A DNA stretch of 64,000 bases from Clostridiales bacterium UBA1758 (GCA_002315595.1 DCHG01000062.1:4076-68075); one strand, 5' to 3'. Numbered from the stretch's first letter, positions 46,249 through 61,377 are shown. The notes: a model not told the origin generated them from the letters alone. Numbers and translations: made by a program.

Positions 46249-46250
46249 AA

Positions 46251-47510
46251 TTATTTCCCGCCCATTATTTCTTCAATCAACTGATTTTCATCACATTCTA
46301 AATAATGTTTCAAATATGTTTGTCCATATTTCCCACTGATTTCTACTTGAATTGTATTATTGGACCATTCAACATCATTTAGCACTTGTACCTTTGAAAT
46401 TACACTCTTTAACCAACAAAATCTAATTGTCATACATAAACGCTGTGCGAATGGCAACTCTGATTCTAACCAATGAAACACCCTGTTCGGCGTTGTCTGT
46501 TTAATGATATCAAAAAAGCATCTATCCACATAAGGTCTATTTGGTTTCATTCCATGACATATCGAGGAACTATGGACTCCGATTGGAAAGGATAATATCG
46601 GCATAGGAAAGAATGTCATAGGCGAATCATTATCCAATGCAATAACCCTGCATATCTCATTGTCGGCATTAAAATCCACAAAATAATTATTTTGTTTATG
46701 ATCTCTTTGAAAACAAATTGCATCAAAATAATTCAACCGATTCAACTCTTTTTGGAAAATCGGAGAAATGTGCTGTTTTTCCTCCAAAGACATATCTGTG
46801 GGACATATGCCATTGCACTCCTTTGTGACAATCCCAACCCTCTCAATGCCGTCATAGCATAATACCGCAAACCAGCAATTTGGAAACATATCATCTAATT
46901 CGAACAAATCTGCCAGTTTTTTTGTAGCGACGCTCATCATCGGGCGAAATATCTGATAGTGCCCTTGTTTGATAAAATTATTCAATTTAAATGAATATAT
47001 CTCGTTTCTGATGAATAAAACAAATTCAGTGCCAAAGTTTTCAAGAAATTCAACAACTTTTTCTTTCCCCTTTGAATAATCCTGAAACAGTCCCGGAAAT
47101 CCCACTTTCCCGAGATCCCATCCGCTATATCTTTTTCTTGTCGTTTCATAATGACTCTCAACATACGCATTCATCTTTTTAAGTTTTCTGATATTCTTCA
47201 GATTACTTAACTCGTTCTTAATTTGCAACTCTATTTCCTCTTTTTTTTCAAAGGAGTTAATATTTTCAAAATAATCTGTTATTACATCCTCAATATATAT
47301 TTGAAATTTACTATGAATTCGACATTCTTTAAAGTAAATGGTTGTTTCATCAACTACTGCGCGAATAATATTGTTTGAAGATGAAAAATAGGTGACATCT
47401 TCTCTCTTGCATTTATACACCGGAAGATCATCTTTGTCAATTTCCACTCGTTTTGATCCACTTCCGTATGTAACTTTTCGAATCAAATCAACTATTCGTT
47501 GCTTTATCAT
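46251..47510 (-). CDS. Hypothetical 419-aa protein with a PI3K/PI4K-like (atypical kinase) catalytic-loop pattern
   Basis: Clean ORF packed tightly between glycan genes. Residues 257-300 read NRLNYFDAICFQRDHKQNNYFVDFNADNEICRVIALDNDSPMTF. See the finding for details. Confidence 0.6.
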   Translation of the reverse strand: MIKQRIVDLIRKVTYGSGSKRVEIDKDDLPVYKCKREDVTYFSSSNNIIRAVVDETTIYFKECRIHSKFQIYIEDVITDYFENINSFEKKEEIELQIKNELSNLKNIRKLKKMNAYVESHYETTRKRYSGWDLGKVGFPGLFQDYSKGKEKVVEFLENFGTEFVLFIRNEIYSFKLNNFIKQGHYQIFRPMMSVATKKLADLFELDDMFPNCWFAVLCYDGIERVGIVTKECNGICPTDMSLEEKQHISPIFQKELNRLNYFDAICFQRDHKQNNYFVDFNADNEICRVIALDNDSPMTFFPMPILSFPIGVHSSSICHGMKPNRPYVDRCFFDIIKQTTPNRVFHWLESELPFAQRLCMTIRFCWLKSVISKVQVLNDVEWSNNTIQVEISGKYGQTYLKHYLECDENQLIEEIMGGK

Positions 47511-47532
47511 TGTCTAACAAAACCTCGTTATA

Positions 47533-48336
47533 TTACTTGATAACGCCTTGTCCTTTGATTATTCTGCGTATAATACGTTCAATATGTAAAATTTTCATTA
47601 CTGCTATTGTATGCTGTAATATAGTTACTCTTCTAAGATATTTTTTTATCCATAATTTATCTACACCATTTCTTAATGCGATTGCTTCGTGTTCTTTTAA
47701 TGTCACGGTTTTAAAATGCTTTGAACTCTCTCCGCCTTCACGAAATCCACTTAATATTTCGTCTACATAATAGAATTTCGCACCGGCAAAATACATTCTT
47801 GACAAAAGTTCATAATCCATTGCGCATCTATAGTCTAAAGAAAACATCCCATACTTTTCATATGCCTTTGACGAAACAAAGACAGACGGATGATTAAGAA
47901 GAAATGTGTATTCCATTTTAGACAGATCCGTATCCGGCTTTTTTATATATCCATCGGATAATATGTTGCGGAATTTAATCGTTTTTCCAAAAACAACATC
48001 AATATCAGTCTGGTTTTCAAAAATACGGCTGATGGTTTTCACGGCCCCGGGATATAGCACATCATCCGAATTGATTATTCCAATAACATCGCCTGTTGAC
48101 ATCAGTATTCCTTTATTAAATGCATCGCTGATTCCCTTATCGGGTTCGGAAACATATCGTGTAACAACTCCCGGATATTGCTTAATTATGTCCAATGTTG
48201 AATCGGTTGACCCTCCATCAATTATAACATACTCTAAATCAGGGGAATTTTCGGCTTTCACACTCTCTATCGTTTCTCGCAAAGTCTTTTCACTGTTATA
48301 AGTTACCGTTATTATCGACACCCGTAAATTCTTCAT
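47533..48336 (-). CDS. Glycosyltransferase family 2
   Basis: VSIITVTYNSEKTL...VIIDGGSTDSTLDII...EPDKGISDAFNKG. ATG at 48336 is preceded by AAGGAAAG. Confidence 0.85.
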   Translation of the reverse strand: MKNLRVSIITVTYNSEKTLRETIESVKAENSPDLEYVIIDGGSTDSTLDIIKQYPGVVTRYVSEPDKGISDAFNKGILMSTGDVIGIINSDDVLYPGAVKTISRIFENQTDIDVVFGKTIKFRNILSDGYIKKPDTDLSKMEYTFLLNHPSVFVSSKAYEKYGMFSLDYRCAMDYELLSRMYFAGAKFYYVDEILSGFREGGESSKHFKTVTLKEHEAIALRNGVDKLWIKKYLRRVTILQHTIAVMKILHIERIIRRIIKGQGVIK

Positions 48337-48355
48337 TACATCTTTCCTTCTGTGG

Positions 48356-49594
48356 TCAATCGATTGTTGCAATTCCTTGTTGACTGATAACTTTGGAGTC
48401 ATTCCCACTTACAATATAAACGACAACAAACAAGAAAAATCCCATGTTGAAATAATGCCCATATCTTAATAATCTCAACAGGAAATAACTAATACACATC
48501 AATTGAGTAATCTTGTTCGTTTTCAAATTGTCCGTTGTCCGATTTTTATAGATAAAATACACCATACCGGCAACGCCCAATATTCCCGTTTCAGATACAA
48601 TTCGCAAAAATAAAGAGTTTGCATCTTCCTGGTTTAATTGTAATTGAACAGAAGATATTTCAAATATTCCACTATATTTTTTATATGCGATCAAATGCGA
48701 TCCAAGACCGCCCCCCATTCCAAACGTCGATTTAAAGTTTTTTAAAGCCACTTTATAATTTATGAATAAGGTTTGGGTGCTTAAATTAGAGTAATCCTCA
48801 GTTTCTTCAAAAAGGAATAATCGAACTGTATCGTCCACTCTCATTTTGAAAATATCAACATAATTATATGCAACAATAAATAGTGCAATAAATAAAAGTA
48901 TAATGGATATTTGTTTAATTCCGTACTTATATTCCGATAGAATTAATATCAAAACAAACGCAATACCCACAAATCCCGATGATGAAAAAGTACAAATCAC
49001 TCCCATAAGAATAATAATCGCTTCAAAAGGATTAGAAATCATTATTTCGGATTCTTTATTATTGCCAATAAAATAGTAGATTGAAAAAAAGACTGCCGGC
49101 ATCAAAACCAGCGCGCATGCTGATGGCTCGGTGAAAATACCACTTGATCGGTAAAAATCAGTAGATCCTGCCTGGGATGGTACAAGCCATCTCATATCAT
49201 AAATAAAAGATACATTCATTTTGCGTGCAACTTGCTGTAACAATACAAATGCAGCAAGAACGCAAGAATAATCGGTATAAGTCTTTAGCACCGACAGATA
49301 ATTACCTTCGTCAATGATCGATGCATAAAAAATTAAATTCCCGAAAATTCCCAATATTTGCTTTAAAAGCAGAACCATTTCGTTGTTTTTTAAAATAACG
49401 CCAAGTATTCCGTGGATGAAAAAAACTGCAAAAAACAGTAAATATTTATTTGTTATTCTTATTGCTTTATAATTACACAAAAGAATAGAGAATTCGAGAA
49501 TCAAAATAACCTCAGGTGAAAAGACTCCCCCGAGAAAAATCAATAAAATCGCTATTTTTTGTTGCAACTTGGATAATGAAATTCTCATCGTCAT
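48356..49594 (-). CDS. wzy: Wzy-type polymerase / O-antigen-ligase-like membrane protein
   Basis: About 10-12 TM segments with a large loop late in the protein. It sits in a Wzx-containing locus. There is no strong sequence motif, as is typical for Wzy. Confidence 0.65.
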   Translation of the reverse strand: MTMRISLSKLQQKIAILLIFLGGVFSPEVILILEFSILLCNYKAIRITNKYLLFFAVFFIHGILGVILKNNEMVLLLKQILGIFGNLIFYASIIDEGNYLSVLKTYTDYSCVLAAFVLLQQVARKMNVSFIYDMRWLVPSQAGSTDFYRSSGIFTEPSACALVLMPAVFFSIYYFIGNNKESEIMISNPFEAIIILMGVICTFSSSGFVGIAFVLILILSEYKYGIKQISIILLFIALFIVAYNYVDIFKMRVDDTVRLFLFEETEDYSNLSTQTLFINYKVALKNFKSTFGMGGGLGSHLIAYKKYSGIFEISSVQLQLNQEDANSLFLRIVSETGILGVAGMVYFIYKNRTTDNLKTNKITQLMCISYFLLRLLRYGHYFNMGFFLFVVVYIVSGNDSKVISQQGIATID

Positions 49595-50778
49595 CCTCTT
49601 ATTTTTTCGTACAAATCTAAGTATTCCTTCACCATTCTGTTTTTCGAAAATTTCTGCGCATACGTCACAATATTTTCGGAATCAAGTTTAGAAACTTCTT
49701 TAAAGACGGTGCATACCGACGCCAAATCGTGAGACGGAATAATTCTACCCACTTCTTCGGAAATCAATTCCGGCAACGCAGTACTGTCATACACAATTGC
49801 CGGTGTCCCGCATGCCATTGCTTCCACTGTCGGAAGGCCAAACGTTTCCTCAACGCTGGTATTGAGAAATACATCCGCCGTTGAATAAAGCCCTGCGAGA
49901 TCATTTAGATTATCTATCCGTTCTACACTCAATATCTTCTTGGAAAGATGCTTTCTTTCCTTATTCCTTATTCCAACCAATACAACCCGACATTCATCAG
50001 GCAGTATTTCAGCCAATCTAATGAAATCATTCAATCCTTTTCTTTCGCTCCATGTACTTGCAACGCCAAGGATCATATATTTATCTTCAATATTATGTTG
50101 TTGTCTAAATCGGCTCTGTGTCGGCTTAAAATTCTGTAAATCAATGCCGTTGTAGATCGTTTTGCACGGAACTTTTTTCAAAAACGATTGCTTCACCTGA
50201 TTTTCAAGCCATTTTGATACACAAACCAAATGCAAATTGTCGACGGATGTAAATAATTCTTTTTTTCTTTGGTAATTCCATGATGAATTATCGAATATGA
50301 TACTCTTTGGATACGTTTTTTTCTGTGGACAATCATGGCAACCGTATTTCCATCTATCGCATCCAACCATATCATAATGGCAACAGTGTCCGGTAAATGC
50401 CCAACAATCGTGCAACGTCCAAACGATCGGTTTTCCGCTTTTTTTTAAATATTCAAATAAAATATCAACATTAATATAGTATCCGTGAAGATTATGCAAA
50501 TGAATAATATCCGGATCGTACAACTCGATTTGTCGAATCAATTTCCGCGTTGCCTCTTTTGAGAAAAAACCGGCCCTATCCGTTAATCTGGTACAAATAC
50601 CATCAATATAGACTCCCGAGGCATTTCCAATCTTATAATGGGAAATATCTTTATCAATCGTGTTGCGCGCAAAGGCAACCATCCCTTCATTTCCTTGATA
50701 TGAAAGAGATCTGCATAAATCTGTTGCAATACGCCCGGTACTCAAGTTACCAAAAATATTGATATGTAATATCCTCAA
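49591..50778 (-). CDS. Glycosyltransferase family 4
   Basis: The EX7E motif is present (VEETFGLPTVEAMACGTP). The N-terminus RILHINI is typical. TTG at 50778 is preceded by GAAGGG; the track starts at TTG 50799. Confidence 0.8.
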   Translation of the reverse strand: MRILHINIFGNLSTGRIATDLCRSLSYQGNEGMVAFARNTIDKDISHYKIGNASGVYIDGICTRLTDRAGFFSKEATRKLIRQIELYDPDIIHLHNLHGYYINVDILFEYLKKSGKPIVWTLHDCWAFTGHCCHYDMVGCDRWKYGCHDCPQKKTYPKSIIFDNSSWNYQRKKELFTSVDNLHLVCVSKWLENQVKQSFLKKVPCKTIYNGIDLQNFKPTQSRFRQQHNIEDKYMILGVASTWSERKGLNDFIRLAEILPDECRVVLVGIRNKERKHLSKKILSVERIDNLNDLAGLYSTADVFLNTSVEETFGLPTVEAMACGTPAIVYDSTALPELISEEVGRIIPSHDLASVCTVFKEVSKLDSENIVTYAQKFSKNRMVKEYLDLYEKIRG

Positions 50779-50843
50779 AAGAAACCCTTCTTTATTCAAA
50801 ACTCAATCCCGAAAAAACACTTTTCAAATTGATAATTTCCCAC

Positions 50844-51422
50844 TCATTTTTCCAGTTTCCTTATCACTCTCGCGGGGTTTCCGACGATCACGGAGCGATC
50901 CTCGTACTGTCCGGCGACGACGGCTCCGGCTCCGACAATGCAGCCCTCGCCCAGTACAGTTCCCTTCAAAATGATCGAATTGCACCCGATAAAGCAGTTT
51001 TTTCCGATTTTGATCTCCCTTGCGGGGATCAGATCGCTATTACCGCCCGTCGGATCGCACAACAATTCCACCCTTGTTTCCGCATCAAGCGGATGAAAAT
51101 CATTATCGAGAATTTTCACATTTCCCCCGATCGATGTATTATCGCCGATCTCGATCTTTTTTCTGGCATAGATCGTCGCCCCGGAAATTCCGACATGATC
51201 TCCGATGACGATCTCGGCACCGGGCGCACGGGTGACAATAATCGTGCGGCTATATAGCCCCACCAAATTCGACAAAAACGAACTTTTGATCGTTACGCCT
51301 TCACCGATCGAAAGATTTGCGCCTTTTTTATTATAAATCAGCGGCAAGCCCTTCAAAAGAAGTCTCTTTCCGTATTTGATTTTTTGAACTTTCAGCGCAA
51401 TTTTAAACCAGTTGCAATTCAT
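50844..51422 (-). CDS. Hexapeptide-repeat O-acetyltransferase (WcaF/maltose acetyltransferase-like)
   Basis: Left-handed beta-helix repeats (IGDHVGISGATIYA, IGDNTSIGGNVKIL, IGKNCFIGCNSII, VGAGAVV). ATGA overlap with the upstream gene. Confidence 0.8.
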   Translation of the reverse strand: MNCNWFKIALKVQKIKYGKRLLLKGLPLIYNKKGANLSIGEGVTIKSSFLSNLVGLYSRTIIVTRAPGAEIVIGDHVGISGATIYARKKIEIGDNTSIGGNVKILDNDFHPLDAETRVELLCDPTGGNSDLIPAREIKIGKNCFIGCNSIILKGTVLGEGCIVGAGAVVAGQYEDRSVIVGNPARVIRKLEK

Positions 51423-52645
51423 AATTTCGAAATTTCATCCTTATATTTGGAAATACTGCATTCCTTGGACAGATTTTTTTCGACATAATCTCTGCTGTTG
51501 ATTTGAGTCGGTTTATTCTCAATAGCATGACGAAGCATTGCTTCAATTGCGGGATAGTCCCCCGGATCACACACTTCACCGCAACCGATTTCTTCGATCA
51601 AAGTCCTGATCTCGGTCCCCTGCTCCAACACGCCGAGGATCGGTTTATTGATTGCCGCAATCCCGTAAAACTTGCTTGGACAACTCACGCCCTTGATGCC
51701 CTTTGCATTGACGCACCAATGAATGTCGCCGGAATTCAACGAAGCGTTCAGATCCGCCTTATCCTGATACGGGATAAAGACGACATTGGCAAGATCTTTG
51801 TCTTCCTTGTTTTTTTTCAGCGTTTCCAATTTCGCACCTGCTCCGACAAAGGCAAAGACGACATCCGTTCGATCACGAAATGTTTCGATAACTTTCATAA
51901 TGTTTTCAAGGTCATAATACAGTCCGATATTGCCGGAATACATCACAACATATTTTCCCGCAAGACCGTATTTTTCTTTGAATTGAAGCACCTCCGGCGC
52001 GTCCTGCGACAAAGGGTAGATCATTTTTTCGTCGATCCAGTTATTGATCATCACGGTTTTCGGGCATTTTTTGCCGACAAAACGGTTTTTGACCGTTTCA
52101 ACAAGATCCCGTCCGACGGTGATGATCAGATCGGATCTGCCGCAAGAGAAAATATCGAGTTTTTTCATCACCCAAACGACGAAACGATTGGATGAGTAAT
52201 TCACGGCACAGATCTGTTCCGGGTTAAAATCCTGAATACAGTACACGAGTTTTGCGCGTTTCATCCATTTACCGATGACGCCCAAAAGCCCACCGAGGAT
52301 CGGCGGCTGAGAAATGGTAAAAACGGCATCCTGACCGCCCGCCTTTTTGCAGGCAGCGATCGCCCGAAAAAAATAGGCAAGAATATTCTTGATCCTGCTG
52401 ATCTTGTTTTCTTTTGAAAACTCCGGAACGCGAACACGGATGATGCGCACACCATTGATCTGCTCAAAATAGTACTTTTTATTCCGATATGCTTCTTCGA
52501 TCGTGCCGGAATAGGACGGTACAGTGCAAATCACGGTGATTTCGAACCGATCGGTCATTCCTTCCGCCAGGTCCTGCAAAATCTGACCGGTCGATGCGAC
52601 ATCGGGGTAATAATAATGGGCGAACATCAAAAGTTTTTTCTTCAT
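51419..52645 (-). CDS. Glycosyltransferase family 4 (WbuB/WcaI-like)
   Basis: MKKKLLMFAHYYYPDVASTGQILQDLAEG is a typical WbuB/WcaI-type N-terminus. ATG at 52645 is the likely start; the in-frame GTG at 52714 and ATG at 52660 are alternatives. Confidence 0.8.
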   Translation of the reverse strand: MKKKLLMFAHYYYPDVASTGQILQDLAEGMTDRFEITVICTVPSYSGTIEEAYRNKKYYFEQINGVRIIRVRVPEFSKENKISRIKNILAYFFRAIAACKKAGGQDAVFTISQPPILGGLLGVIGKWMKRAKLVYCIQDFNPEQICAVNYSSNRFVVWVMKKLDIFSCGRSDLIITVGRDLVETVKNRFVGKKCPKTVMINNWIDEKMIYPLSQDAPEVLQFKEKYGLAGKYVVMYSGNIGLYYDLENIMKVIETFRDRTDVVFAFVGAGAKLETLKKNKEDKDLANVVFIPYQDKADLNASLNSGDIHWCVNAKGIKGVSCPSKFYGIAAINKPILGVLEQGTEIRTLIEEIGCGEVCDPGDYPAIEAMLRHAIENKPTQINSRDYVEKNLSKECSISKYKDEISKL

Positions 52646-52648
52646 TTT

Positions 52649-52658
52649 CCCCCCCCCC
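52649..52658 (-). repeat. Homopolymeric G10 tract (C10 on the plus strand) 3 nt upstream of the GT4 start codon
   Basis: The plus strand reads ttcattttCCCCCCCCCCat. The coding strand reads ATGGGGGGGGGGAAAATGAAG. Confidence 0.95.
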
Positions 52659-52730
52659 ATTATTCGTGCAAAATTCGTCGGTTTTGATTGCGTTCTTTCG
52701 AATTTACCATACACCGACTTCTATTATAAT

Positions 52731-52759
52731 ATTTTATCATAATATGATCCGAAATTCAA
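52731..52759 (-). promoter_or_regulatory. Sigma-A type promoter with an extended -10 for the minus-strand glycan operon
   Basis: The minus strand reads TTGAAT (52759-52754), 17-nt spacer ending in TGa, TAAAAT (52736-52731). Confidence 0.5.
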
Positions 52760-52798
52760 TCACTACGGGGGTGATTTACGCGTTTTGCCTTTCTTTCG

Positions 52799-52827
52799 TT
52801 GAATAATTTCGCCAAATATGATATACT
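52799..52827 (+). promoter_or_regulatory. Sigma-A type promoter with an extended -10 for fkp
   Basis: TTGAAT, 17-nt spacer ending in TGa, TATACT. It is divergent from the minus-strand promoter, about 40 bp away. Confidence 0.5.
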
Positions 52828-52890
52828 AAATTAAAAGCAGATGTTATTTCGGATTGATCCCATTCGTTTTGCAAAAGGCGTGAGTAAAAT

Positions 52891-55863
52891 ATGACAAAAT
52901 CCATCACCGCATTAACCTCATTGTTCCTACAAACCTCGCTTCAGGATTCCGAGGCTGATTACCGACGTTCCGTCACAAATGCTGGCTTTCCGCACTGGGA
53001 CGCCGTTGTCATCACCGCCTCCAATCGGTTGCAGGCAGAGGGCTATATGCTCCAAATCGAATCACGCAGAAGCCGTCTTCCGCAGAATACGGCTTTTCTC
53101 GTCATTCCCGATGAAGGCGACAAACGCGTCGGCTCCGCCGGATCAACGCTTTCCGTCATTCGGGAACTGAAATCGCGTTTCGGCGACCTTTCCGATAAAA
53201 GATTTCTTGTGATTCACGCAGGCGGAAACTCATCACGCTGTCCGCAATATTCTGCGCTCGGCAAACTTTTTGCGCCTCTTCCCACGATGCTCGGCGACAA
53301 GCCTGCCACACTGTTCGATATGTTTCTTGTCACGATGGCGTCCGTTCCCGGCAGGATGAAAAACGGAATGTTGCTGCTTTCGGGCGATGTCACACTGCTT
53401 TTTAATCCTCTAATGTGCGATTTCGGTGATGCCTCCGCCGCCGTCATTTCGTTTACGGAAGATGTCGAAACCGGCAAGGATCACGGCGTATATGTGAAAA
53501 ACCCCGTCACGGGTAATGTGAAAAGTTTTCTGCACAAGCAACCCGTTGAGGTGTTGCGCGATCGCGGAGCCGTCGACCGTCGCAATCTCTGTTCCATCGA
53601 CACGGGTGCCATTTGGCTCTGTCCCGAAATTCTCGACCGTCTTTTCTCACTTGTCGACACCGACGTAAAATATCATTCCGTCGTCAACGACACCGTCCGT
53701 CTGTCGCTTTATTCCGACATCGCCTATTGCCTTGCCGAGGATAGCACGCTTGCGCGGTTTCAAAACGAAACGCCCGAGGGCAGTTTCTGCCCCGAATTGA
53801 CTGCGGTACGCGAAAAGTTATGGAACGTCATCGGCTCGTATAATATGAAACTGATGAACCTTGCACCGGCGAAATTCGTTCATTTCGGATCCATTCCCGA
53901 AATTCTCGATCTTGTCAACACCGGCGTGGAAGAATACACTTTCATCGGTTGGGAAAAACAAATTGGTTCTTCTCTCGGAAACGCTTCAAATCCGGCATAC
54001 AATTCTGTGCTGAACGACGGTGCCATCATCGGCGACGGCAGTTTTTTGGAGGTTTCCTATGTCCGTTCCGGCGCAGTGATCGGCAAAAATTCGTATGTTT
54101 CGTTTGTTGATCTTCATCGTGGCGATCGGATCCCGGACAATGTTCTCGTTCACGGTTTGCGACACTCTAACGGGAAATTCACCTGCCGGATCATGAACGT
54201 CACAGATAATCCAAAGAGTAATTATCTCTTTGGTATTCAACTATCTGTAATCGGAAATAAACTAGGTGCAAAACTTTCCGAAACGCTTTGGGACGCAATG
54301 CTCTATCCCGAATGTGACAGTATCGACGAGGCAGTTCAGGCGAGTTTGAACCTCTACGATCTCGTTGTGAACGACTCCGGCGATCTGGATCAATGGCAAA
54401 GCGCGACAAAAAAATCGCTTTGTTCCGGTTTCAATGATGCCGATCCGAAAGCGATCATCGATTGGAACCAGCGCATGGAAGAACTCGTTCAAATGGATGA
54501 ATTCGCAAATGCCATTCGATCGGGAATTCCCGCAAGCACGATCAAACCATCCTCTGCAAAACTTTCAGAAATTCAAAAAAAGTGGGTTGCGGATCAGTTT
54601 AAGGATCTTGATCCGACTGATCTTTCGGATTTTTCCTATGCGATCCGCCTTCACTATTATCTTGGTACTGTGTTCGGCGAAGAGGAGTTTACCGCGTCCT
54701 GCTATCAACTGATCGCCCAAACAGTGCTTCATTCGACACTTGCCGGTCTGAACTACCGCGACCAATTGAAGATCGCATCCGACGAAGTCGTCGTCCGTCT
54801 TCCGCTTCGCGTCAACTGGGGCGGCGGTTGGACGGACACCTGTCCCCATTGTTTGGAACACGGCGGCATCGTTTTGAATGCCGCGATCGCGATCGACGGC
54901 AAATATCCCGTTGAAGTTCGGCTCGTCAAAATCCCGGAACACAAAATTGTATTTGACAGCCGTGATATGGATGTCCACGGCGAATTCACCGATATTGCAC
55001 CGTTGCAGGAAACCGGGAACCCCTTTGATCCGTTTTCATTGCAAAAAGCCTGCCTGCTCGCCTGCGGAATTATCCCGAAGACAGGCGGCAACCTCGACGC
55101 TATCCTGACACGCCTCGGCGGAGGCTTTGTCATGCACTCCGAGGTCAAAAATGTCCCGAAAGGCTCCGGTCTCGGTACATCTTCCATTCTTTCGGCTGCC
55201 GCGGTCAAGGCGATGTTGCGCTTTGTGGGCGCGCCATTCACGGAAGAAACGCTTTATTCCACCGTGCTTGCGATGGAACAAATCATGTCCACCGGGGGCG
55301 GATGGCAGGATCAGGTGGGCGGATTGATTCCGGGCATCAAACTCGTTTCGTCCTCACGCGGTATCGACCAGCGGCTGAACGTCGAGCATATCCACCTTTC
55401 CGATGCGACAAAATCGGAATTAAATGAGCGTTTTGCGATTATTTACACCGGTCAGCGTCGTTTGGCGCGAAACCTTTTGCGCGATGTTCTCGGTCGGTAT
55501 ATCGGTAACGAGCCGGACAGTCTGTACGCACATCGTGAGATCCAAAAAATAGCAAATTCCATGCGTCTTGCGCTGGAAAACGGCAATGTGGACGAATTTG
55601 CGAGACTTTTGGATCAACACTGGTCATTGTCCAAAAAAATAGACTCCGGCAGTAGCAATTCGCTGATCGAACAGATCTTCATCGCAATTGACGATTTGAT
55701 CGACGCAAGAATGTGTTGCGGTGCCGGTGGAGGCGGTTTTTTGCAAGTCGTGCTGAAAAAGGGCGTGACCAAAGGCGATGTGCATCATCGCTTGAAGGAT
55801 GTGTTCCTCGATTTCGCCGTTGATGTTTGGGAAAGCGCGATCGTGTACGAGATCAATGCGTAA
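52891..55863 (+). CDS. fkp: Bifunctional L-fucokinase / L-fucose-1-phosphate guanylyltransferase
   Basis: 990 aa. The N-terminal half resembles the fucokinase-family nucleotidyltransferase region (VVITASNRLQAEGY, GSAGSTL). The C-terminal half is a GHMP kinase (PKGSGLGTSSILSAAAV, CGAGGGGF). Length and architecture match Bacteroides Fkp as I remember it. Confidence 0.85.
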   Translation: MTKSITALTSLFLQTSLQDSEADYRRSVTNAGFPHWDAVVITASNRLQAEGYMLQIESRRSRLPQNTAFLVIPDEGDKRVGSAGSTLSVIRELKSRFGDLSDKRFLVIHAGGNSSRCPQYSALGKLFAPLPTMLGDKPATLFDMFLVTMASVPGRMKNGMLLLSGDVTLLFNPLMCDFGDASAAVISFTEDVETGKDHGVYVKNPVTGNVKSFLHKQPVEVLRDRGAVDRRNLCSIDTGAIWLCPEILDRLFSLVDTDVKYHSVVNDTVRLSLYSDIAYCLAEDSTLARFQNETPEGSFCPELTAVREKLWNVIGSYNMKLMNLAPAKFVHFGSIPEILDLVNTGVEEYTFIGWEKQIGSSLGNASNPAYNSVLNDGAIIGDGSFLEVSYVRSGAVIGKNSYVSFVDLHRGDRIPDNVLVHGLRHSNGKFTCRIMNVTDNPKSNYLFGIQLSVIGNKLGAKLSETLWDAMLYPECDSIDEAVQASLNLYDLVVNDSGDLDQWQSATKKSLCSGFNDADPKAIIDWNQRMEELVQMDEFANAIRSGIPASTIKPSSAKLSEIQKKWVADQFKDLDPTDLSDFSYAIRLHYYLGTVFGEEEFTASCYQLIAQTVLHSTLAGLNYRDQLKIASDEVVVRLPLRVNWGGGWTDTCPHCLEHGGIVLNAAIAIDGKYPVEVRLVKIPEHKIVFDSRDMDVHGEFTDIAPLQETGNPFDPFSLQKACLLACGIIPKTGGNLDAILTRLGGGFVMHSEVKNVPKGSGLGTSSILSAAAVKAMLRFVGAPFTEETLYSTVLAMEQIMSTGGGWQDQVGGLIPGIKLVSSSRGIDQRLNVEHIHLSDATKSELNERFAIIYTGQRRLARNLLRDVLGRYIGNEPDSLYAHREIQKIANSMRLALENGNVDEFARLLDQHWSLSKKIDSGSSNSLIEQIFIAIDDLIDARMCCGAGGGGFLQVVLKKGVTKGDVHHRLKDVFLDFAVDVWESAIVYEINA

Positions 55864-55900
55864 TTCAAGGGGGAACGCATTGCTTTGTTCATAAAATGAT

Positions 55901-55932
55901 GGGGCAGGTTCAATGAGCCTGCCCCGTTTTTT
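55901..55932 (+). terminator. Rho-independent terminator after fkp
   Basis: ggggcagg...cctgcccc stem followed by gtttttt. Confidence 0.75.
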
Positions 55933-56006
55933 CGGATATTTTCACTCTGCTCCGCACGACGGAAATAGGAATCGTCCACAGATGGAATATGGAAAATTTC
56001 GGCACA

Positions 56007-56888
56007 TCAATCACAATTTCCTTCGGCTCTGTTTTCTTCTTTGGAAACGATTTCACGAACTTCATCCAAAGATTTCCAATCGGCGGTATGTTTTTTCATT
56101 ACTATTTTGTGTCGAATTCTAACAACAAATTTAGGGAAACAGGAACGAATATGATAAAGTTTTCCCAGTGATTCTTTTGTCGTTTCGTATTTTTTCTTTG
56201 AGATTAGGTTATATTTATATAAAATCTTATTGTCTTCCAAGGCTACCAAAACTCCATTATTGGTTCCTATTCCATCACAGTCAAAAATCGACACGATTTG
56301 ACTAATTGATTGATATTGTACCCCCCCGGAAAATGCTTTTACGAAGAAACCAAAATCAGCGGCCAACCCTTCTTGTAACGAAAAAGGGTTGTTTTTTAGA
56401 TATTTGCTTCGAGTAATAACGGATTGGTGGCAAAACTCCATTTCTCCCAAAAATGACAATTTACTCGGATCCTTAGACCTGTAAACCCGATACTTATTTT
56501 GATACTTAAAAACCACATCGCCGTATATTATATCCGCGTTATTTTTATCTGCTCTCTCAAATACAAGCATCGAATATTCATCAAAAAAAATATCACCTGC
56601 ATTCAAATAAAGACACCATTCGCCGGTTGCAAGAGCCGCGCCTTTATTCATTGCGTCGTATATTCCCTTGTCCGATTCACTGTAAAAACGGATCAGTAAT
56701 CCCAATTTCTCCGCTTTCTCAATATATTCTTTCATTGCTTCTGCCGTTCCGTCCGTTGACGCCCCGTCAACTATCACCATTTCAATCGTACTCATATCAA
56801 TTTTCTGATACATAACGGATTCAACAGTTTTCAATAAATCTTTTTTCGCGTTTTTGCATATCGTGATGATCGAATATTCAGGCTTCAT
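56007..56888 (-). CDS. Glycosyltransferase family 2
   Basis: YSIITICKNAKKDL...VIVDGASTDGTAEAM...ESDKGIYDAMNKG. It is a paralogue of the GT2 at 47533..48336. ATG at 56888 is preceded by GGGAGGG. Confidence 0.85.
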   Translation of the reverse strand: MKPEYSIITICKNAKKDLLKTVESVMYQKIDMSTIEMVIVDGASTDGTAEAMKEYIEKAEKLGLLIRFYSESDKGIYDAMNKGAALATGEWCLYLNAGDIFFDEYSMLVFERADKNNADIIYGDVVFKYQNKYRVYRSKDPSKLSFLGEMEFCHQSVITRSKYLKNNPFSLQEGLAADFGFFVKAFSGGVQYQSISQIVSIFDCDGIGTNNGVLVALEDNKILYKYNLISKKKYETTKESLGKLYHIRSCFPKFVVRIRHKIVMKKHTADWKSLDEVREIVSKEENRAEGNCD

Positions 56889-56898
56889 AGCATTCCCT
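56832..56898. repeat. Direct repeat copy A (ribosome-binding site plus first ~15 codons of the GT2 gene)
   Basis: Near-identical to 58005..58070. The shared core is ttttcgcgtttttgcatatcgtgatgatcgaatattcaggcttcatagcattccct. Confidence 0.9.
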
Positions 56899-56918
56899 CC
56901 CAGCATAAAGTGATCCTC

Positions 56919-58031
56919 TCACCAATAACATCCATTTTCAACCTGTTTATAATTTTGGGGCGGAGTTTCGATTGGGCGAATCCAATTTTCATTGATAAAC
57001 TTCTTATATAAAAGATCGGAAGTGAGCAGAAATTCTCCATAAACTCCAAAAAAAGCCGGCAACCGTCCGCAAGGTTCAATTGCTATTTTACCCATTTTCT
57101 TGATCTCACACCCCAAAGGAAATCCGTATGCTCCTGCTCCAATAAGTGCAATATCAAAATCTATTTTCCGAATATCATCGATCATTTTCCTCAACACCTG
57201 AAAAAAATTGGTAAATCCTTCCGGTCGTTCGCCCACCTGAGTTGTATAAGTCTTGTATGTAATCAACTCAAAATCCGGCAACTCACATTCAGGCGAATAT
57301 GCCCATTCCGATTTGCGTTCATATTGTAATCTAATTGAATCCGTAAATGAATTTGCAACCAACACTTTTTTCCCTTTTAATGCACCAATCCATGTATCCC
57401 GAATCGGTTTATCACAATACGGCCCAAATTCAAAATATTGCTTTTTTCTATCATCAACCATTTTAACATGGCGAAGAAAATGACCATATGAAAACAACTG
57501 ATATTTAAACGGCGGAAAACTAACTGGCATATAATCGCATTCGGAATAACAAGAAATTAACAGTTCGGAAAACTCATCTACCGCTTGATCGATTTCTTTA
57601 TAGTCATCAGAAAAAAAGCCCGAAGTTTGATATAACCACTCAATCCAGCAAGTTTTGTACCTTTTTGTCACCTTGGCTCGTTTTTTACAATATGAATTTA
57701 CAATTGCCGCTTCAGTATTTCCCATCCTCCCCAGGAAAGTTGGTGTGCCATCCAATATCCTGTTTTTAATTTCATCAGTTTCTAAAATATCAATAGTTTT
57801 ATAACCTAAACCTTTTAATATTTGAAAATATGTCGTATCGCAATCGTGCTTTATCAGTGTTAGAAATGCACGAACTATATTGATTATAAAATAATCAATA
57901 CTATCTCTAATCGTAAATTTATACACTATATTTTCCTCTTTTGAAACAAGAATTTCACTTACTTTTTTATCTTTTACTCTTTTGAATGCACATCCATAAT
58001 TTTCCAATAAATCATTTTCGCGTTTTTGCAT
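56919..58031 (-). CDS. Hypothetical protein, possibly a GT-D-fold (DUF1792-like) glycosyltransferase
   Basis: 370-aa ORF. FLGRMGNTEAAIV and DIALIGAGAYGFPLGCEIKKMGKIAIEPCG loosely resemble GT-D family motifs. The ATG at 58031 has no ribosome-binding site; the GTG at 57926 is preceded by AAGAGGAAA. Confidence 0.5.
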   Translation of the reverse strand: MQKRENDLLENYGCAFKRVKDKKVSEILVSKEENIVYKFTIRDSIDYFIINIVRAFLTLIKHDCDTTYFQILKGLGYKTIDILETDEIKNRILDGTPTFLGRMGNTEAAIVNSYCKKRAKVTKRYKTCWIEWLYQTSGFFSDDYKEIDQAVDEFSELLISCYSECDYMPVSFPPFKYQLFSYGHFLRHVKMVDDRKKQYFEFGPYCDKPIRDTWIGALKGKKVLVANSFTDSIRLQYERKSEWAYSPECELPDFELITYKTYTTQVGERPEGFTNFFQVLRKMIDDIRKIDFDIALIGAGAYGFPLGCEIKKMGKIAIEPCGRLPAFFGVYGEFLLTSDLLYKKFINENWIRPIETPPQNYKQVENGCYW

Positions 58032-58070
58032 ATCGTGATGATCGAATATTCAGGCTTCATAGCATTCCCT
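58005..58070. repeat. Direct repeat copy B, in front of the 370-aa orphan gene
   Basis: Same core as copy A, with one substitution plus a 1-nt deletion in the A-run. This leaves a 28-codon remnant ORF (58060..57974, MKPEYSIITICKNAKMIYWKIMDVHSKE). Confidence 0.9.
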
Positions 58071-58145
58071 TCCGCTACATTTCATTGCATTTTTATCAAA
58101 ATATCATCAATTCACGTAATTGAAAAATAGTCTATACCGAGTCAT

Positions 58146-59270
58146 TCACAGGATCTTTTCCGTGATATTCAATACGGTCTCTATAATTTGATCCATATCA
58201 TAGTACTTATATTCGGCTAGTCGTCCGCAAAACAGAACATTTTGTTCTTTTAATGCTAATTCTCTGTATTTTTTTAATAAAATCTCGTTCTTTTCATCGT
58301 TTATTGGATAATACGGTTCAACTCCGGGTACCCATTCAGTACTATATTCCTTGGTGATGACAGTCTTTGGTATCTCGTTTCCGTTTTCATCCTTGCCGAA
58401 TTGAAACCACTTATGTTCAATCATTCTGGTCCACGGAGTATCCGCATCAGTATAATTAATAACGGCGTTTCCTTGGTAATTCGAACAATTAATTATTTCA
58501 TTTTCAAATCTAACCGATCTATATTCCAGATGACCATATTGATAATCGAAAAAGGCATCAATCGGACCGGAATAAATAATGTTCTCGGCTACAAATTCAT
58601 ATTCGGCTTTATTTTTTAAATAATCGACACCTAATTCTACATCCGCACCATCGAGCATCTTTTTTACCATTTCCGTATATCCACCATTTGGAATTCCCTG
58701 ATATTTAGCATTAAAATAATTATTGTCATAGGTAAATCGGACAGGTATGCGGTCGATAATGAATGTCGGTAATTGCGTGCACTCTCTCCCCCATTGCTTC
58801 TGCGTATATCCCTTAATCAGTTTTTCATAAATATCCGTTCCGACTAGCGAAATGGCCTGTTCTTCAAGATTTTTCGGAACGCGAATTCCTGACAATTTTC
58901 TCTGTTTTTCAATGAAACTTTTCGCTTCATCGGGCGATACAATCCCCCACATTGAATTAAATGTATACATATTAAACGGAAGCGAATATAATTCCCCCTT
59001 ATAATTGGCAATTGGGGAATTCACAAAATGATTAAAACTCGCAAACCGATTGACATAGTTCCATACTTTTATATTATTCGTATGAAAAATGTGTGCGCCA
59101 TATTTATGCACATCAATTTGGTCAATTCTTTCGGTGTAAATATTACCTCCAATATGTGACCTTTTATCGAGAACTAACACAGTTTTCCCTTTTTCTATCG
59201 CTCTTTGTGCAAATACAGAGCCACTTAATCCCGCGCCAACTATGAGAAAATCATATTTTTTCTTTTTCAT
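58146..59270 (-). CDS. glf: UDP-galactopyranose mutase
   Basis: YDFLIVGAGLSGSVFA...LVLDKRSHIGGNIYT...HKYGAHIFHTN...GRLAEYKYYDMDQ are classic Glf motifs. ATG at 59270. Confidence 0.92.
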   Translation of the reverse strand: MKKKKYDFLIVGAGLSGSVFAQRAIEKGKTVLVLDKRSHIGGNIYTERIDQIDVHKYGAHIFHTNNIKVWNYVNRFASFNHFVNSPIANYKGELYSLPFNMYTFNSMWGIVSPDEAKSFIEKQRKLSGIRVPKNLEEQAISLVGTDIYEKLIKGYTQKQWGRECTQLPTFIIDRIPVRFTYDNNYFNAKYQGIPNGGYTEMVKKMLDGADVELGVDYLKNKAEYEFVAENIIYSGPIDAFFDYQYGHLEYRSVRFENEIINCSNYQGNAVINYTDADTPWTRMIEHKWFQFGKDENGNEIPKTVITKEYSTEWVPGVEPYYPINDEKNEILLKKYRELALKEQNVLFCGRLAEYKYYDMDQIIETVLNITEKIL

Positions 59271-59287
59271 ATTTCCAGCCCCAGCAT

Positions 59288-60301
59288 TTAATCGCAACGA
59301 TTTGTATACCACGGAACAAGTTTCAACAACCAAAATGCTAAATACCGAGTTCTTCTCATACTTTTAATAAGAATTCCGGAATTTCCAAAATCTTTTCCTT
59401 CAATCACTGTATATATTTCCGGACTGATTTCTTTCATTTCCGTGTCAAATTTTCGAAGTTTTTGCAAAGTGGCTTTGTTAATTCCACAACGATAGAGATA
59501 TCGAAACGCCGTTCTTCCGGTAATTCCGCAGACTCTTAATAGGTAACTTTTGTTCGGAGTATTTTTTGAAATTAAGTGATAATTCTCCGAAATCATTAAT
59601 GAAATCTTCAAAAGATCATCAATATGCTTTTTTATAGATTCAGTCGATACCGATTGCCCGTCCCGCCCAATACGATAATTGTACATATTGATATGATAAT
59701 AGCGAATCGTTGTTGCTACCAAGAATGGTAAGTAAAAATAGACTGTATCCGTATACAATAAATGCTCCGGCAACTCAACACCCGATTTTAAGAGAACTTC
59801 TGTCCTATATGTTATATTCTGATGGCCATAATGTGAAGAAGGTACATTAATCGCTATATTTTGCAAATCCGAAATATCGAACGTCTCGATTTTTTTCATA
59901 TCTATATTATTTTCGCAAAAAGATCGCATATCTGATATTATCACATCTGCATTTTCATTCTCCAACTGTTTCAAAAAGGCTCCCAATGCACCTTTTTCCA
60001 ACATATCATCTCCGTCAAGCGTTTTGAAATATATACCGGTTGCATGATTGATTACATAATTTTGAACCGACCCGTATCCACCATTTTCTTTATGAACAGG
60101 GAAAATTGAATTTGGGTATTTCATTGCATATTCTTTTGCGATTGAGAGTGTTTCGTCTGTTCCACCATCGTCCACCACGAATATTTCCAATTTATCCATA
60201 ATTTCAGGTACAATTAATGAATCCAATGTATCTTTTATTGTATTTTGGGCATTAAATGCCGCAATTGATATCGTTAGAACTTTGTTCATTTTAACTTTCA
60301 T
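59288..60301 (-). CDS. Glycosyltransferase family 2 (candidate galactofuranosyltransferase, by position next to glf)
   Basis: LTISIAAFNAQNTIKDTLDSL...FVVDDGGTDETLSIAKEY. ATGA overlap with the upstream gene. Confidence 0.8.
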   Translation of the reverse strand: MKVKMNKVLTISIAAFNAQNTIKDTLDSLIVPEIMDKLEIFVVDDGGTDETLSIAKEYAMKYPNSIFPVHKENGGYGSVQNYVINHATGIYFKTLDGDDMLEKGALGAFLKQLENENADVIISDMRSFCENNIDMKKIETFDISDLQNIAINVPSSHYGHQNITYRTEVLLKSGVELPEHLLYTDTVYFYLPFLVATTIRYYHINMYNYRIGRDGQSVSTESIKKHIDDLLKISLMISENYHLISKNTPNKSYLLRVCGITGRTAFRYLYRCGINKATLQKLRKFDTEMKEISPEIYTVIEGKDFGNSGILIKSMRRTRYLAFWLLKLVPWYTNRCD

Positions 60302-61377
60302 TCCTTATCGATCAACTTTTGATAAAGCATCTTTCGTTTCTTTGCGTTTTGAATCGTCCGAAGTGTATCCGGCTTTCTTTCACGGTGAACAAGGTCACCG
60401 CAATACCCGATCAGCACGGCAATACGGGATTTCTTTTCAGCCGTTGCCTTCGCTTTCAAACTATTCCACGCCGAGATGAACAGACTATTTTTAATCCCGC
60501 CCTCGTTTGCCGCGCCGATATATTTAATCTGCGCGCAACGTGCCCAGTAATCCTTTTTCCCGAAATTACCCGATGCAAGAACATCCTCCATTATTTCGGA
60601 GACAATGTGCTCATCATCCGTCCCGTAGCAGTCGCGATACGGCATCGAAAGATATTCCACGCAAACGAGTGATACAACACGGGCAAATTTCCACAATCCA
60701 AGCGTTTTCAGTTCCGTCTCCCACCGGCTCACATCCACTTGATCAGCAAACACCGCCCAATCGCAAAGATGCCGAAGACCAAAGCCCTCAAGCGCAAAAT
60801 GCTTCGCCATATGGCTGAGCATGATCACGCAGTGATGATACGCCGACGGCATCATCATACCGTCGACCTCCTCCGCCTGCTCAATCACATTTTCAAAAAC
60901 GCTCTCAACTTTATCGTTGTTTCCCGAAATCCTTCGATGAACCTCAATCGTGATACCCGTTTCATCTGCGAATGCCGCGTGCATCACGCCATCGTCCTTT
61001 TTCATGGCATAGCCGTGATCCGTCATCACCTTCATTGTCCGGGGGAAATCCGCGTCGCACACATAAATGTCCACATCCCCTGCCATTCGTCGCATCGGCT
61101 CCGGATAGTACCGTGCAGACGTGCAACCCTTCAAGATCACATATGGGATCTGCGCCGATTTCATCATCTCGTGGATTTTCCGATGTTGGTCGAAAACAAG
61201 CAGATTTTTGCGGATAATCCTGAAAAACAGTTCGTCCTTGACATTCGGAAGCATCGCATATACGGCTTGTTGCGCCGCTTCCTCAAACAATTCCGGCGAA
61301 GTTTCAAAGGCTTCGATCGGAGCAGAAAAAAGAACATTCGCCAATATTTTCAGCAGGAGTATCTGTGTTTCGTTCAT
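60298..61377 (-). CDS. Uncharacterised nucleotidyltransferase family protein (NTP_transf_5-like)
   Basis: ILKGCTSARYYPEPMRRMAGDVDIYV resembles the nucleotidyltransferase-fold G..D.D signature of this family. ATG at 61377 lies 6 nt after GGAGG. Confidence 0.55.
   Translation of the reverse strand: MNETQILLLKILANVLFSAPIEAFETSPELFEEAAQQAVYAMLPNVKDELFFRIIRKNLLVFDQHRKIHEMMKSAQIPYVILKGCTSARYYPEPMRRMAGDVDIYVCDADFPRTMKVMTDHGYAMKKDDGVMHAAFADETGITIEVHRRISGNNDKVESVFENVIEQAEEVDGMMMPSAYHHCVIMLSHMAKHFALEGFGLRHLCDWAVFADQVDVSRWETELKTLGLWKFARVVSLVCVEYLSMPYRDCYGTDDEHIVSEIMEDVLASGNFGKKDYWARCAQIKYIGAANEGGIKNSLFISAWNSLKAKATAEKKSRIAVLIGYCGDLVHRERKPDTLRTIQNAKKRKMLYQKLIDKE

Follow-up and report, generated by a model that had tools for sequence, protein, structure and literature searches.

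In Bacteroides, the use of fucose salvaged from the host to fucosylate the cell surface is well known as a trait for colonisation. The closest solved relative of the protein described here, by sequence and by fold, is the FKP of B. fragilis (BfFKP, PDB entries 5YYS, 9IIT, 9IIP and 9IIS), and the roles of its active-site residues have been described (PMC11982464, PMC12732313). FKPs are grouped into clade A, with the plant enzyme AtFKGP and bacterial proteins, clade B, with proteins of Bacteroidota, TxFKP and the Leishmania enzyme, and clade C of animals (Smith et al. 2025, PMC12732313). On the consuming side, wcaI and wcaE of the E. coli colanic-acid pathway have been described as GDP-fucose-consuming steps (PMC12075129, PMC12595478). 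A further reference is WrtF of Rhizobium tropici, a GT2 fucosyltransferase of GT-A fold (9OMH–9OMN).

The gene studied here, fkp, is located in a stretch of 64,000 nucleotides from Clostridiales bacterium UBA1758 (the window). It lies at the junction of a Wzx/Wzy-type and an ABC-transporter-type glycan cluster in the genome of this uncultured gut member of the Oscillospirales. The features of the locus are:

43823–50799, minus strand: AT-rich block of the left, Wzx/Wzy-type cluster with Wzx, DUF6625, an unknown protein of 419 aa, GT2, Wzy and GT4 (GC z-scores of −5 to −7)
43823–45274, minus strand: Wzx flippase of the left cluster
48356–49594, minus strand: Wzy of the left cluster
50844–51422, minus strand: hexapeptide O-acetyltransferase, WbbJ/WcaF-like (core-like GC3 of 0.560)
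51419–52714, minus strand: WcaI-family-like GT4, candidate fucosyltransferase, divergent from fkp (NF007640, 159 bits, cutoff 276)
52649–52658, minus strand: G10 homopolymer at the ribosome-binding site of this GT4
52703–52730, plus strand: alternative promoter-like site, TTTACC-16-TATAAT (scan match 10/12)
52799–52827, plus strand: candidate sigma-A promoter with extended −10, TTGAAT-17-TGaTATACT (scan match 9/12 with TG; weak)
52891–55863, plus strand: fkp, predicted bifunctional L-fucokinase/L-fucose-1-phosphate guanylyltransferase (ORF, PF07959 and PF00288, best PDB match BfFKP, AF2 model)
53188–54315, plus strand: GDP-fucose pyrophosphorylase (guanylyltransferase) domain, aa 100–475 (PF07959, Foldseek match to 9iis, mapped residues)
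54754–55761, plus strand: GHMP-type L-fucokinase domain, aa 622–957 (match to the BfFKP C-terminal domain, Foldseek match to 9iip, invariant residues)
55901–55932, no strand assigned: intrinsic terminator hairpin between the convergent fkp and GT2 operon (fold energy; also inverted repeat I9)
56007–56906, minus strand: GT2 resembling the GT2 fucosyltransferases WrtF and WcaE, convergent with fkp (NCBIfam and PDB matches)
56007–64000, minus strand: right, ABC-transporter-type cluster with GT2, GT-D-like, Glf, GT2, NTP_transf_5, GalE, GT2 and GT11
63764–64000, minus strand: C-terminal 78 aa of a protein of the GT11 alpha-1,2-fucosyltransferase family, truncated at the end of the window (complete gene about 63764–64615)

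The right cluster runs past the window end into an ABC ATPase and an ABC-2 permease. A second contig, L001, is 99.986% identical to the window in blastn with one indel of 1 nt.

The ATG-started ORF of fkp encodes 990 aa and combines both FKP domains on one polypeptide, the guanylyltransferase at the N-terminus and the GHMP fucokinase at the C-terminus. In Pfam, Fucose_pyrophosphorylase (PF07959) matches aa 100–475 (E = 1.9e-67, 228.5 bits) and GHMP_kinases_N (PF00288) matches aa 741–809 (E = 3.6e-10). The motifs PKGSGLGTSS and CGAGGGGF are found at aa 756–765 (nt 55156–55185) and aa 943–950 (nt 55717–55740), respectively. The initial annotation had described such an ORF with a nucleotidyltransferase half, a GHMP kinase half and these two motifs, and had named the enzyme fucokinase/fucose-1-phosphate guanylyltransferase. 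The ORF call, the Pfam matches, the motif positions and the top PDB match, BfFKP (5yys/9iit), all agree with this. The similarity of the N-terminal half to fucose-1-phosphate guanylyltransferase domains, on which that assignment had hinged, is seen in PF07959 and in the fold. The active-site residues of the guanylyltransferase begin N-terminal of the PF07959 span, the first being D74.

The AlphaFold (AF2) model of Fkp has a pLDDT of 88.2 and a pTM of 0.81, and its top structural match in Foldseek is the solved BfFKP (E = 8e-58). The N-terminal domain, which in this family combines a nucleotidyltransferase and a beta-helix fold, aligns in the model with 9iis (E = 3.3e-22, TM 0.64) and the modelled kinase domain with 9iip (TM 0.87, r.m.s. 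deviation 3.0, 30% identity). Domain order is the same and the lengths are 990 aa (Fkp) and 949 aa (BfFKP). Every mapped catalytic and fucose-binding residue is kept. In the pyrophosphorylase, D74, G81/S82, H109, G111/G112, R116, K125, D166 and K216 correspond to D31, G38/S39, H73, G75/G76, R80, K89, D136 and K187 of BfFKP, and these active-site residues are invariant in an alignment of 33 clade members. In the kinase, R640, W647, D649, T650, E796, Q806 and D807 correspond to the kinase and fucose-binding residues R592, W599, D601, T602, E751, Q761 and D762; the glycine-rich loop 756–765 and the GAGGGG stretch 944–949 are present and the kinase residues are likewise invariant in the 33 members. 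An apparent shift of the catalytic K187 in a pairwise alignment (HKQP versus QKP) is an artefact, and profile alignment pairs the invariant K216 with K187. The C-terminal kinase would convert free beta-L-fucose and ATP to fucose-1-phosphate, from which the N-terminal nucleotidyltransferase would form GDP-L-fucose with GTP.

Sequence identity to BfFKP is low, with ~21% overall. The C-terminal domain matches that of BfFKP with 170–228 bits, the N-terminal half with 26–33 bits and ~16% identity. Fkp scores 387.1 bits against the NCBIfam Fkp equivalog NF009948, below the cutoff of 721, and is by sequence a divergent subfamily outside this curated equivalog. It also differs from BfFKP in its host, a Clostridia bacterium instead of a member of the Bacteroidota, and in the position of its gene inside polysaccharide clusters. 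Since N-terminal similarity to BfFKP is weak despite the strong PF07959 match, the sequence suggests that Fkp does not belong to clade B. With clades A and B it shares the G75/R79/K88-type N-terminal residues and the invariant kinase residues (PMC12732313). No assignment of Clostridia to a clade was found in the supplement of that study.

Relatives of Fkp are 53–71% identical over the full length and have the same domains. They are found in Clostridia, mostly Oscillospirales but also Lachnospiraceae (Ruminococcaceae, Acutalibacteraceae, Faecousia, Blautia and Lachnospiraceae), and are annotated as L-fucokinase or bifunctional fucokinase/L-fucose-1-P-guanylyltransferase. Cultured members include Blautia wexlerae MSK.20.46, Blautia luti, Blautia aquisgranensis CLA-JM-H16 and Ruminococcus sp. 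AF46-10NS. By these sequence relationships Fkp is assigned to a large Clostridia-specific FKP clade, and the label Bacteroides-type given by the initial annotation does not hold. A search of the literature for a characterised FKP from Firmicutes or Clostridia found none, and the clade is without biochemical reports in the literature searched. The gene fkp had been correctly spotted and is an ordinary one.

Polysaccharide genes predominate among the neighbours of fkp across the clade, as they do here. The commonest upstream neighbour in relatives is a Wzx flippase (14/68). Of 80 related loci, 16 have FucU within their flanks, and it is the first gene downstream of fkp in 10 of 74; the best match of these proteins is L-fucose mutarotase. 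In some relatives fkp is located in a nucleotide-sugar supply cluster and not among glycosyltransferases. Clade members usually carry fkp in a 3'-terminal position of surface-polysaccharide operons, and the mutarotase gene frequently comes next. The locus described here departs from the clade in two respects. Relatives have fkp on the strand of its neighbours (64/70 upstream, 58/73 downstream), whereas here it is inverted to both, an arrangement seen in 0 of 64 relatives. Furthermore, relatives often have FucU after fkp and the closest ones have gmd-fcl-manC nearby; here neither is present within 66 kb. The large FKP clade of gut Clostridia to which Fkp belongs is routinely encoded in capsule or wall-polysaccharide operons with FucU. 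If the clade is active, many gut Firmicutes could also place scavenged fucose on their surfaces. With an identity to BfFKP of only ~21%, these enzymes could also offer another choice of biocatalyst for making GDP-fucose.

The genes gmd and fcl are absent from the 64-kb window and a 1.9-kb extension, as the initial annotation had stated for the window. The sole SDR-superfamily gene of the window (61485–62534) matches PF16363 and was considered as gmd; it is GalE with 434 bits. FucU, fucose permease and fucosidase genes were not found in the window either. On the other hand, gmd/fcl adjoin fkp in the loci L016, L029, L032, L069, L090 and L091. Among relatives with usable flanks, the two closest, L090 (71%) and L091 (68%), carry gmd, with or without fcl and manC, a few kb from fkp, and so do four other relatives. 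What the window lacks is therefore a poor guide to the remainder of the genome, and the dependence on scavenged fucose suggested by the initial annotation does not follow from it.

Three candidate fucosyltransferases are suggested by sequence on both sides of fkp, namely the GT4, the convergent GT2 and the GT11. The fragment of the GT11 in the window matches PF01531 with 46.8 bits. The full gene on L001 encodes 283 aa with the motif HIRRGDY and reaches 97.9 bits. No HxRxGD[YF] motif is present in the six frames of the window; it lies just past the window end. The GT11 reported for this locus is real and the proposed link of fkp to a GT11 fucosyltransferase is supported. The best NCBIfam match of the GT2 is WcaE (110 bits, cutoff 369) and its best PDB matches are WrtF structures (9OMH/9OMM, E = 3e-12), ~20 bits above other GT2 enzymes. 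WrtF is its best solved relative, but with 49 bits over ~220 aligned residues the resemblance is low. Of the five key residues of GT2 fucosyltransferases of the WrtF/WcaE/WbdO type (WrtF numbering; PMC12595478), four are kept (Asp66, His142, Asp167 and Phe191, the last being Phe or Tyr in this type) and Asn143 is replaced by Gln. At the donor site this GT2 reads NAGD and not GADD as in WrtF, or NXDD. Its true start is likely the ATG at 56888 (MKPEYS...). For the GT4 (GC3 0.532, core-like) the gene caller gives 408 aa, and the ATG at 52645 is likely the true start. Of 80 fkp loci, 13 have homologs of the neighbouring O-acetyltransferase.

The WcaI-like GT4, WcaF/WbbJ-like acetyltransferase and WcaE-like GT2 that flank fkp recall the colanic-acid steps of WcaI, WcaF and WcaE in E. 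coli. However, none of the three matches reaches its curated cutoff, the predicted GDP-fucose supply is salvage by fkp instead of gmd/wcaG, and the host is of Gram-positive type. GDP-fucose would most likely feed the GT4 together with the acetyltransferase, the WrtF/WcaE-like GT2 and the GT11.

All other large ORFs from 41679 to 64000 are on the minus strand, so the opposite orientation of fkp had been read correctly. The terminator hairpin (GGGGCAGG...CCTGCCCC followed by T6) has a folding energy of −25.4 kcal/mol (z = −6.05) and 0 of 200 shuffled sequences were as good, in agreement with the terminator first proposed for fkp. It is possibly bidirectional. The extended −10 promoter attributed to fkp was recovered by the scan, but the evidence for it is weak, since the region contains about twice the expected matches (10 against 4.9 ± 2.2). 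Because of the opposite strand, the strong terminator and the promoter-like sites, it is plausible that fkp is a separate transcription unit. It would be transcribed alone from the divergent intergenic region (52646–52890) up to the hairpin in the intergenic region 55864–56006. Rfam revealed no riboswitch or leader near fkp. An Rfam match to BTnc005 at 40123–40208 is a chance match (27 bits, gathering score 174.8).

The initial annotation regarded fkp as an independently, that is horizontally, acquired and self-contained GC-rich cassette in an AT-rich locus. The GC contrast itself is real. The GC content of fkp is 0.508, that of most flanking genes is 0.32–0.38, and positions 54841–54900 contain 35 G+C in 60. 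The difference of 12 GC points is the largest among 50 loci compared, and the inversion to both neighbours and the gene's own terminator would also fit a cassette. However, fkp matches the 28 housekeeping genes of the same window (GC 0.518 ± 0.028; GC3 of fkp 0.562), with z-scores of −0.4 for GC, −0.2 for GC3 and −1.4 for codon usage (codon JS divergence), whereas the AT-rich glycosyltransferase genes deviate from them with z-scores of −5 to −7. Therefore the inference has to be reversed: in composition fkp is native to the genome, and it is the AT-rich glycosyltransferase blocks that stand out. Nor is fkp a lone GC-rich module, as the adjoining acetyltransferase and GT4, NTP_transf_5 and GalE are core-like as well. 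A fkp richer in GC than its neighbours is general in the clade (median +0.046). Fkp and ValRS each have their nearest relatives at 71% identity, and these relatives rank alike for the two proteins; the ValRS relatives (~70%) are Clostridia, mostly Oscillospirales. Around fkp, inverted repeats are at chance level and no direct repeats, no tRNA within 40 kb, no integrase, transposase or other mobility gene among the neighbours and no invertible or IS-bounded segment were found. Acquisition as a cassette is thus improbable, and an old transfer, or one from a source of like GC, may be compatible with the matching composition. For annotation, a GC contrast should be read against the genome background. 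A recent import of the AT-rich block was considered with Glf, whose nearest relatives are ~70% identical, like those of housekeeping genes; two high-scoring matches are chimeric assemblies.

We consider it likely that fkp encodes a working bifunctional FKP, is native in composition and forms its own transcription unit at the junction of two clusters, with its product most likely feeding the flanking fucosyltransferase candidates. That the product is used elsewhere, for instance in protein glycosylation or another glycan, with an incidental position of fkp, is quite unlikely. In Bacteroides, Fkp does supply capsules as well as glycoproteins (PMC8068183), the calls for the GT2 and GT4 are below threshold, and the supply-cluster loci of some relatives would fit. 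Against this stand the bona fide GT11 in the right cluster, the PDB entry closest to the neighbouring GT2, which is a fucosyltransferase, and the predominance of polysaccharide neighbours in the clade. The substrate could also be D-arabinose or L-galactose, yielding GDP-D-Arap or GDP-L-Gal, as FKPs tolerate changes at C5, TxFKP is faster on D-arabinose than on L-fucose (PMC11982464, PMC12732313) and the clade is distant from characterised enzymes. All fucose contacts of BfFKP (W599, D601, T602, Q761 and D762) are kept, however, and the occurrence of FucU, gmd/fcl and GT11 with the clade points by association to L-fucose, which makes another sugar highly unlikely. Equally improbable to this is an active kinase with a degenerate or regulatory N-terminal domain, as suspected for the FKP-like fucokinases of animal clade C. 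The weak match of the N-terminal half to BfFKP and a pLDDT below 50 for residues 114–124, the nucleotide-binding loop, could be taken in this sense. The equivalents of G75/G76, R80, K89, D136 and K187 are nevertheless present and clade-invariant, the degenerate clade-C proteins are those without these residues (PMC12732313), and there is no separate GFPP gene nearby.

Beyond the preferred reading of a native, working FKP, a more far-reaching model is conceivable but, taken as a whole, unlikely. The lineage would have lost gmd-fcl-manC and depend fully on scavenged host or dietary fucose, fkp would be a conserved, native anchor that feeds two different, exchangeable AT-rich surface-glycan clusters, and the G-tract at the ribosome-binding site would tune the adjacent candidate fucosyltransferase. 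If true, Clostridia would here have an equivalent of the host-like surface fucosylation of Bacteroides. The G10 tract is the window's only G/C run of at least 8 bases and the sole indel relative to L001, its length differing between the assemblies (9 versus 10).

fkp most likely encodes a native, separately transcribed FKP that would convert free L-fucose to GDP-L-fucose and thereby supply the fucosyltransferases of both adjoining surface-glycan clusters. The reading frame, its strand and the two motifs quoted in the initial annotation are confirmed, and both expected halves are present in one ORF:

52891-55863 (+), fkp, 990-aa ORF with ATG start (ORF call)
aa 100-475 of the product, Fucose_pyrophosphorylase, PF07959 (Pfam, 228.5 bits, E 1.9e-67)
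aa 741-809, GHMP_kinases_N (Pfam)
aa 756-765, motif PKGSGLGTSS
aa 943-950, motif CGAGGGGF

The closest solved structures by sequence are the Bacteroides fragilis FKP (BfFKP) entries 5yys and 9iit. With a profile of the 33-sequence Clostridia clade the match to BfFKP climbs to E 2e-77. An AlphaFold2 model computed from this alignment is confident (mean pLDDT 88.2, pTM 0.81). Foldseek aligns it with full-length BfFKP first (9iit, E 8e-58), followed by the kinase domain alone (9iip, TM 0.87, r.m.s.d. 3.0 Å, 30% identity) and, in third place, the pyrophosphorylase domain alone (9iis, E 3.3e-22, TM 0.64, 16% identity).

Residue roles were taken from the BfFKP crystal study (PMC11982464) and from TxFKP mutagenesis (PMC12732313) and transferred through BfFKP alignments. 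The guanylyltransferase residues of BfFKP (fkp product in brackets) are D31 (D74), G38/S39 (G81/S82), H73 (H109), G75/G76 (G111/G112), R80 (R116), K89 (K125), D136 (D166) and K187 (K216). Those of the kinase are R592 (R640), W599 (W647), D601 (D649), T602 (T650), E751 (E796) and Q761/D762 (Q806/D807), and the glycine-rich loop is also there. K187 seems displaced by one residue when the two proteins are aligned pairwise, but not in the profile alignment. All mapped residues of both halves are invariant across the 33-member alignment, and thus two intact activities are predicted. A lack of guanylyltransferase similarity in the N-terminal half, which would have spoken against the initial annotation, is contradicted by PF07959 and the conserved residues.

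The label "Bacteroides-type", on the other hand, does not hold. The product shares the mapped residues and the fold of BfFKP but only about 21% of its sequence, and the N-terminal half matches BfFKP with just 26-33 bits. The product reaches 387 bits against the NCBIfam Fkp equivalog, for which the cutoff is 721. The nearest full-length homologs (53-71% identity) belong to Clostridia, with genomes of Ruminococcaceae, Acutalibacteraceae, Faecousia, Oscillospiraceae, Blautia and Lachnospiraceae represented. Existing annotations call several of them "L-fucokinase" or "bifunctional fucokinase/L-fucose-1-P-guanylyltransferase"; fkp is a further member of this known family. FKP clades A, B and C have been defined (PMC12732313), and no characterised Clostridia FKP was found in the literature searched.

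The gene had also been regarded as a GC-rich cassette, independently acquired or independently regulated. The contrast in composition is real (50.8% GC against 32-38% for most neighbours; the hand count of 35/60 G+C at 54841 is correct), but it is the AT-rich flanks that deviate. The first 43 kb carry housekeeping genes, among them those for ValRS, RelA/SpoT, HU, ribulose-phosphate 3-epimerase and glucuronate isomerase. In this part, the 28 genes that encode 150 aa or more have a GC of 0.518 ± 0.028 and a GC3 of 0.569 ± 0.043. Compared to these, fkp is ordinary (GC 0.508, z -0.4; GC3 0.562, z -0.2) and its codon usage is the least divergent of all locus genes (JS 0.014, z -1.4), whereas the surrounding glycosyltransferase, flippase and polymerase genes lie 5-7 sd under the core. 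The polysaccharide region (43145-64000) alternates between core-like and AT-rich segments:

43823-50799, AT-rich (GC3 0.29-0.37)
50844-55863, core-like (GC3 0.53-0.57), with acetyltransferase (50844-51422), GT4 adjoining fkp (51419-52714) and fkp
56007-60301, AT-rich (GC3 0.29-0.37)
60298-62534, core-like (GC3 0.53-0.57), with NTP_transf_5 (60298-61383) and GalE (61485-62534)
62693 to window end, AT-rich (GC3 0.29-0.37)

As four further genes have core-like GC3, native-like and AT-rich segments together make up a mosaic. Next to fkp there are no boundary repeats, no tRNA and no mobility genes. ValRS, which places the organism among Oscillospirales (closest relative about 71%), is as distant from its nearest relatives as fkp is. 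Independent acquisition is therefore unsupported, and fkp is best regarded as native. In 49 related loci fkp is usually GC-richer than its own flanks (median +0.046), with the window as the extreme (+0.123). As a check on recent import of the AT-rich blocks, a homology search with Glf from one of them gave nothing closer than about 70%.

From 41679 to the window end all sizeable ORFs other than fkp are on the minus strand, in agreement with the initial annotation. Candidate signals of transcription are:

52703-52730, second promoter candidate (promoter scan)
52799-52827, extended -10 promoter candidate (consensus match)
55901-55932, terminator, 8-bp GC stem followed by a T-run

The terminator is convincing (-25.4 kcal/mol, z = -6.05, 0/200 shuffles as stable); a simple scanner misses it only because the loop exceeds its limit. 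The proposed promoter at 52799-52827 matches the consensus, but ten promoter-like matches are present in the region (4.9 ± 2.2 expected) and a rival site exists, so its use by fkp is plausible rather than established.

An independent assembly (JGI 3300001598, contig L001/L088) matches the window over 21.1 kb at 99.986% identity and runs past it. The only SNPs are at 57729 and 57759, where L001 has T for the C of the window, both in the GT-D-like gene. The two clusters are:

Right (-), ABC-transporter type, in transcription order: ABC-2 permease, small bAvd-like gene, ABC ATPase, GT11, GT2, GalE, NTP_transf_5, GT2, Glf, GT-D-like gene, GT2 ending at the terminator shared with fkp
Left (-), Wzx/Wzy type: GT4, acetyltransferase, GT4, Wzy, GT2, unassigned gene, DUF6625, Wzx

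fkp is convergent with the right cluster and divergent from the left one, and is thus not inside a single operon. This inverted junction position and the mosaic composition are of mild interest.

The GT11 cited in the initial annotation is real (PF01531, 97.9 bits, HIRRGDY), though only its last 78 aa are inside the window. The GT2 and GT4 touching fkp are suggestive as further GDP-fucose users. GT2 (56007-56906) has WcaE as top NCBIfam match. Among PDB structures it is closest to the GT2 fucosyltransferase WrtF (E 3e-12, about 20 bits over other GT2 structures), of which 4/5 key residues (PMC12595478) are kept. GT4 (51419-52714) matches the WcaI family best, with a sub-cutoff score of 159 bits; the next gene is a WbbJ/WcaF-like acetyltransferase.

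A neighbour survey covered 80 genome loci with clade members (denominators 64-74 by measure). The upstream neighbour is on the strand of fkp in 64/70 and the downstream neighbour in 58/73 relatives; both are opposite in 0/64, compared to the window, where both are. Most common are a Wzx-type flippase upstream (14/68, GT4s next) and RbsD/FucU downstream (10/74, best NCBIfam match L-fucose mutarotase). This regular placement of fkp within polysaccharide operons across the Clostridia clade is likewise of mild interest. gmd is found beside fkp in six relatives (loci L016, L032, L069, L029, L090 and L091; 507-522 bits, cutoff 415), all except L029 also with fcl (477-484 bits, just below the cutoff of 500). 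L090 and L091, which at 71% and 68% identity are among the closest relatives found, additionally carry a ManC-like gene and so have the whole de novo route. These neighbours tie the clade strongly to L-fucose and GDP-fucose metabolism, and show that the lineage normally has both salvage and de novo synthesis. A search of the 64-kb window for gmd/fcl, FucU, fucosidase and permease found none, which bears out the reported absence of gmd/fcl; given the coexistence in relatives, this absence is no evidence of the suggested dependence on scavenged fucose.

AraC-family regulators, none of them in the window, are the nearest downstream neighbour in 5/74 relatives (homologous cluster in 9 loci; L016 3599-4501, L090 6193-7056), which hints at sugar-responsive regulation of fkp in some members of the clade. 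In L091 (4563-7773), the genes immediately upstream of fkp encode a galactokinase-like GHMP kinase (468 aa), a sugar-1-P nucleotidyltransferase and an SDR, and may form a second salvage-type nucleotide-sugar route beside gmd-fcl-manC. The predicted nucleotidyltransferase NTP_transf_5 (PF14907) is near fkp in the window and in 9/80 related loci (among them L004 3835-4929 and L092 7051-8013, the latter directly upstream of fkp).

The bAvd-like gene (23S_rRNA_IVP, four-helix bundle, 129 aa; L088 1826-2215, about 1.3 kb past the right window end) is wedged between permease and ATPase of the export pair. No confident family was found for the 370-aa protein of 56919-58031 (just a faint GT-D-fold match), nor for 46251-47510 (419 aa) and 43145-43768 (207 aa), both without Pfam/NCBIfam match. 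An 81-nt direct repeat (56821-56901 and 57993-58073; 86% identical ungapped, about 96% gapped) comprises, on the minus strand, the RBS and first ~16 codons (MKPEYSIITICKNAK) of GT2 56007-56906. The second copy precedes the GT-D-like gene, and the ORF of that gene begins inside this copy in another frame. The repeat, at which contigs L002 and L003 both break off, looks like a recombination scar inside the AT-rich block.

Also of mild interest is a length-variable G-tract at the candidate fucosyltransferase GT4. This G10 tract (52649-52658, -), the only G/C homopolymer of at least 8 bases in the window, lies between the divergent fkp and GT4 and precedes the likely GT4 start codon (ATG, 52645) by 4 nt. 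This is where the independent assemblies have their only indel (nine G in L001, ten in the window and in contigs L002 and L003); either slipped-strand variation of expression or a sequencing error in the homopolymer could explain it.
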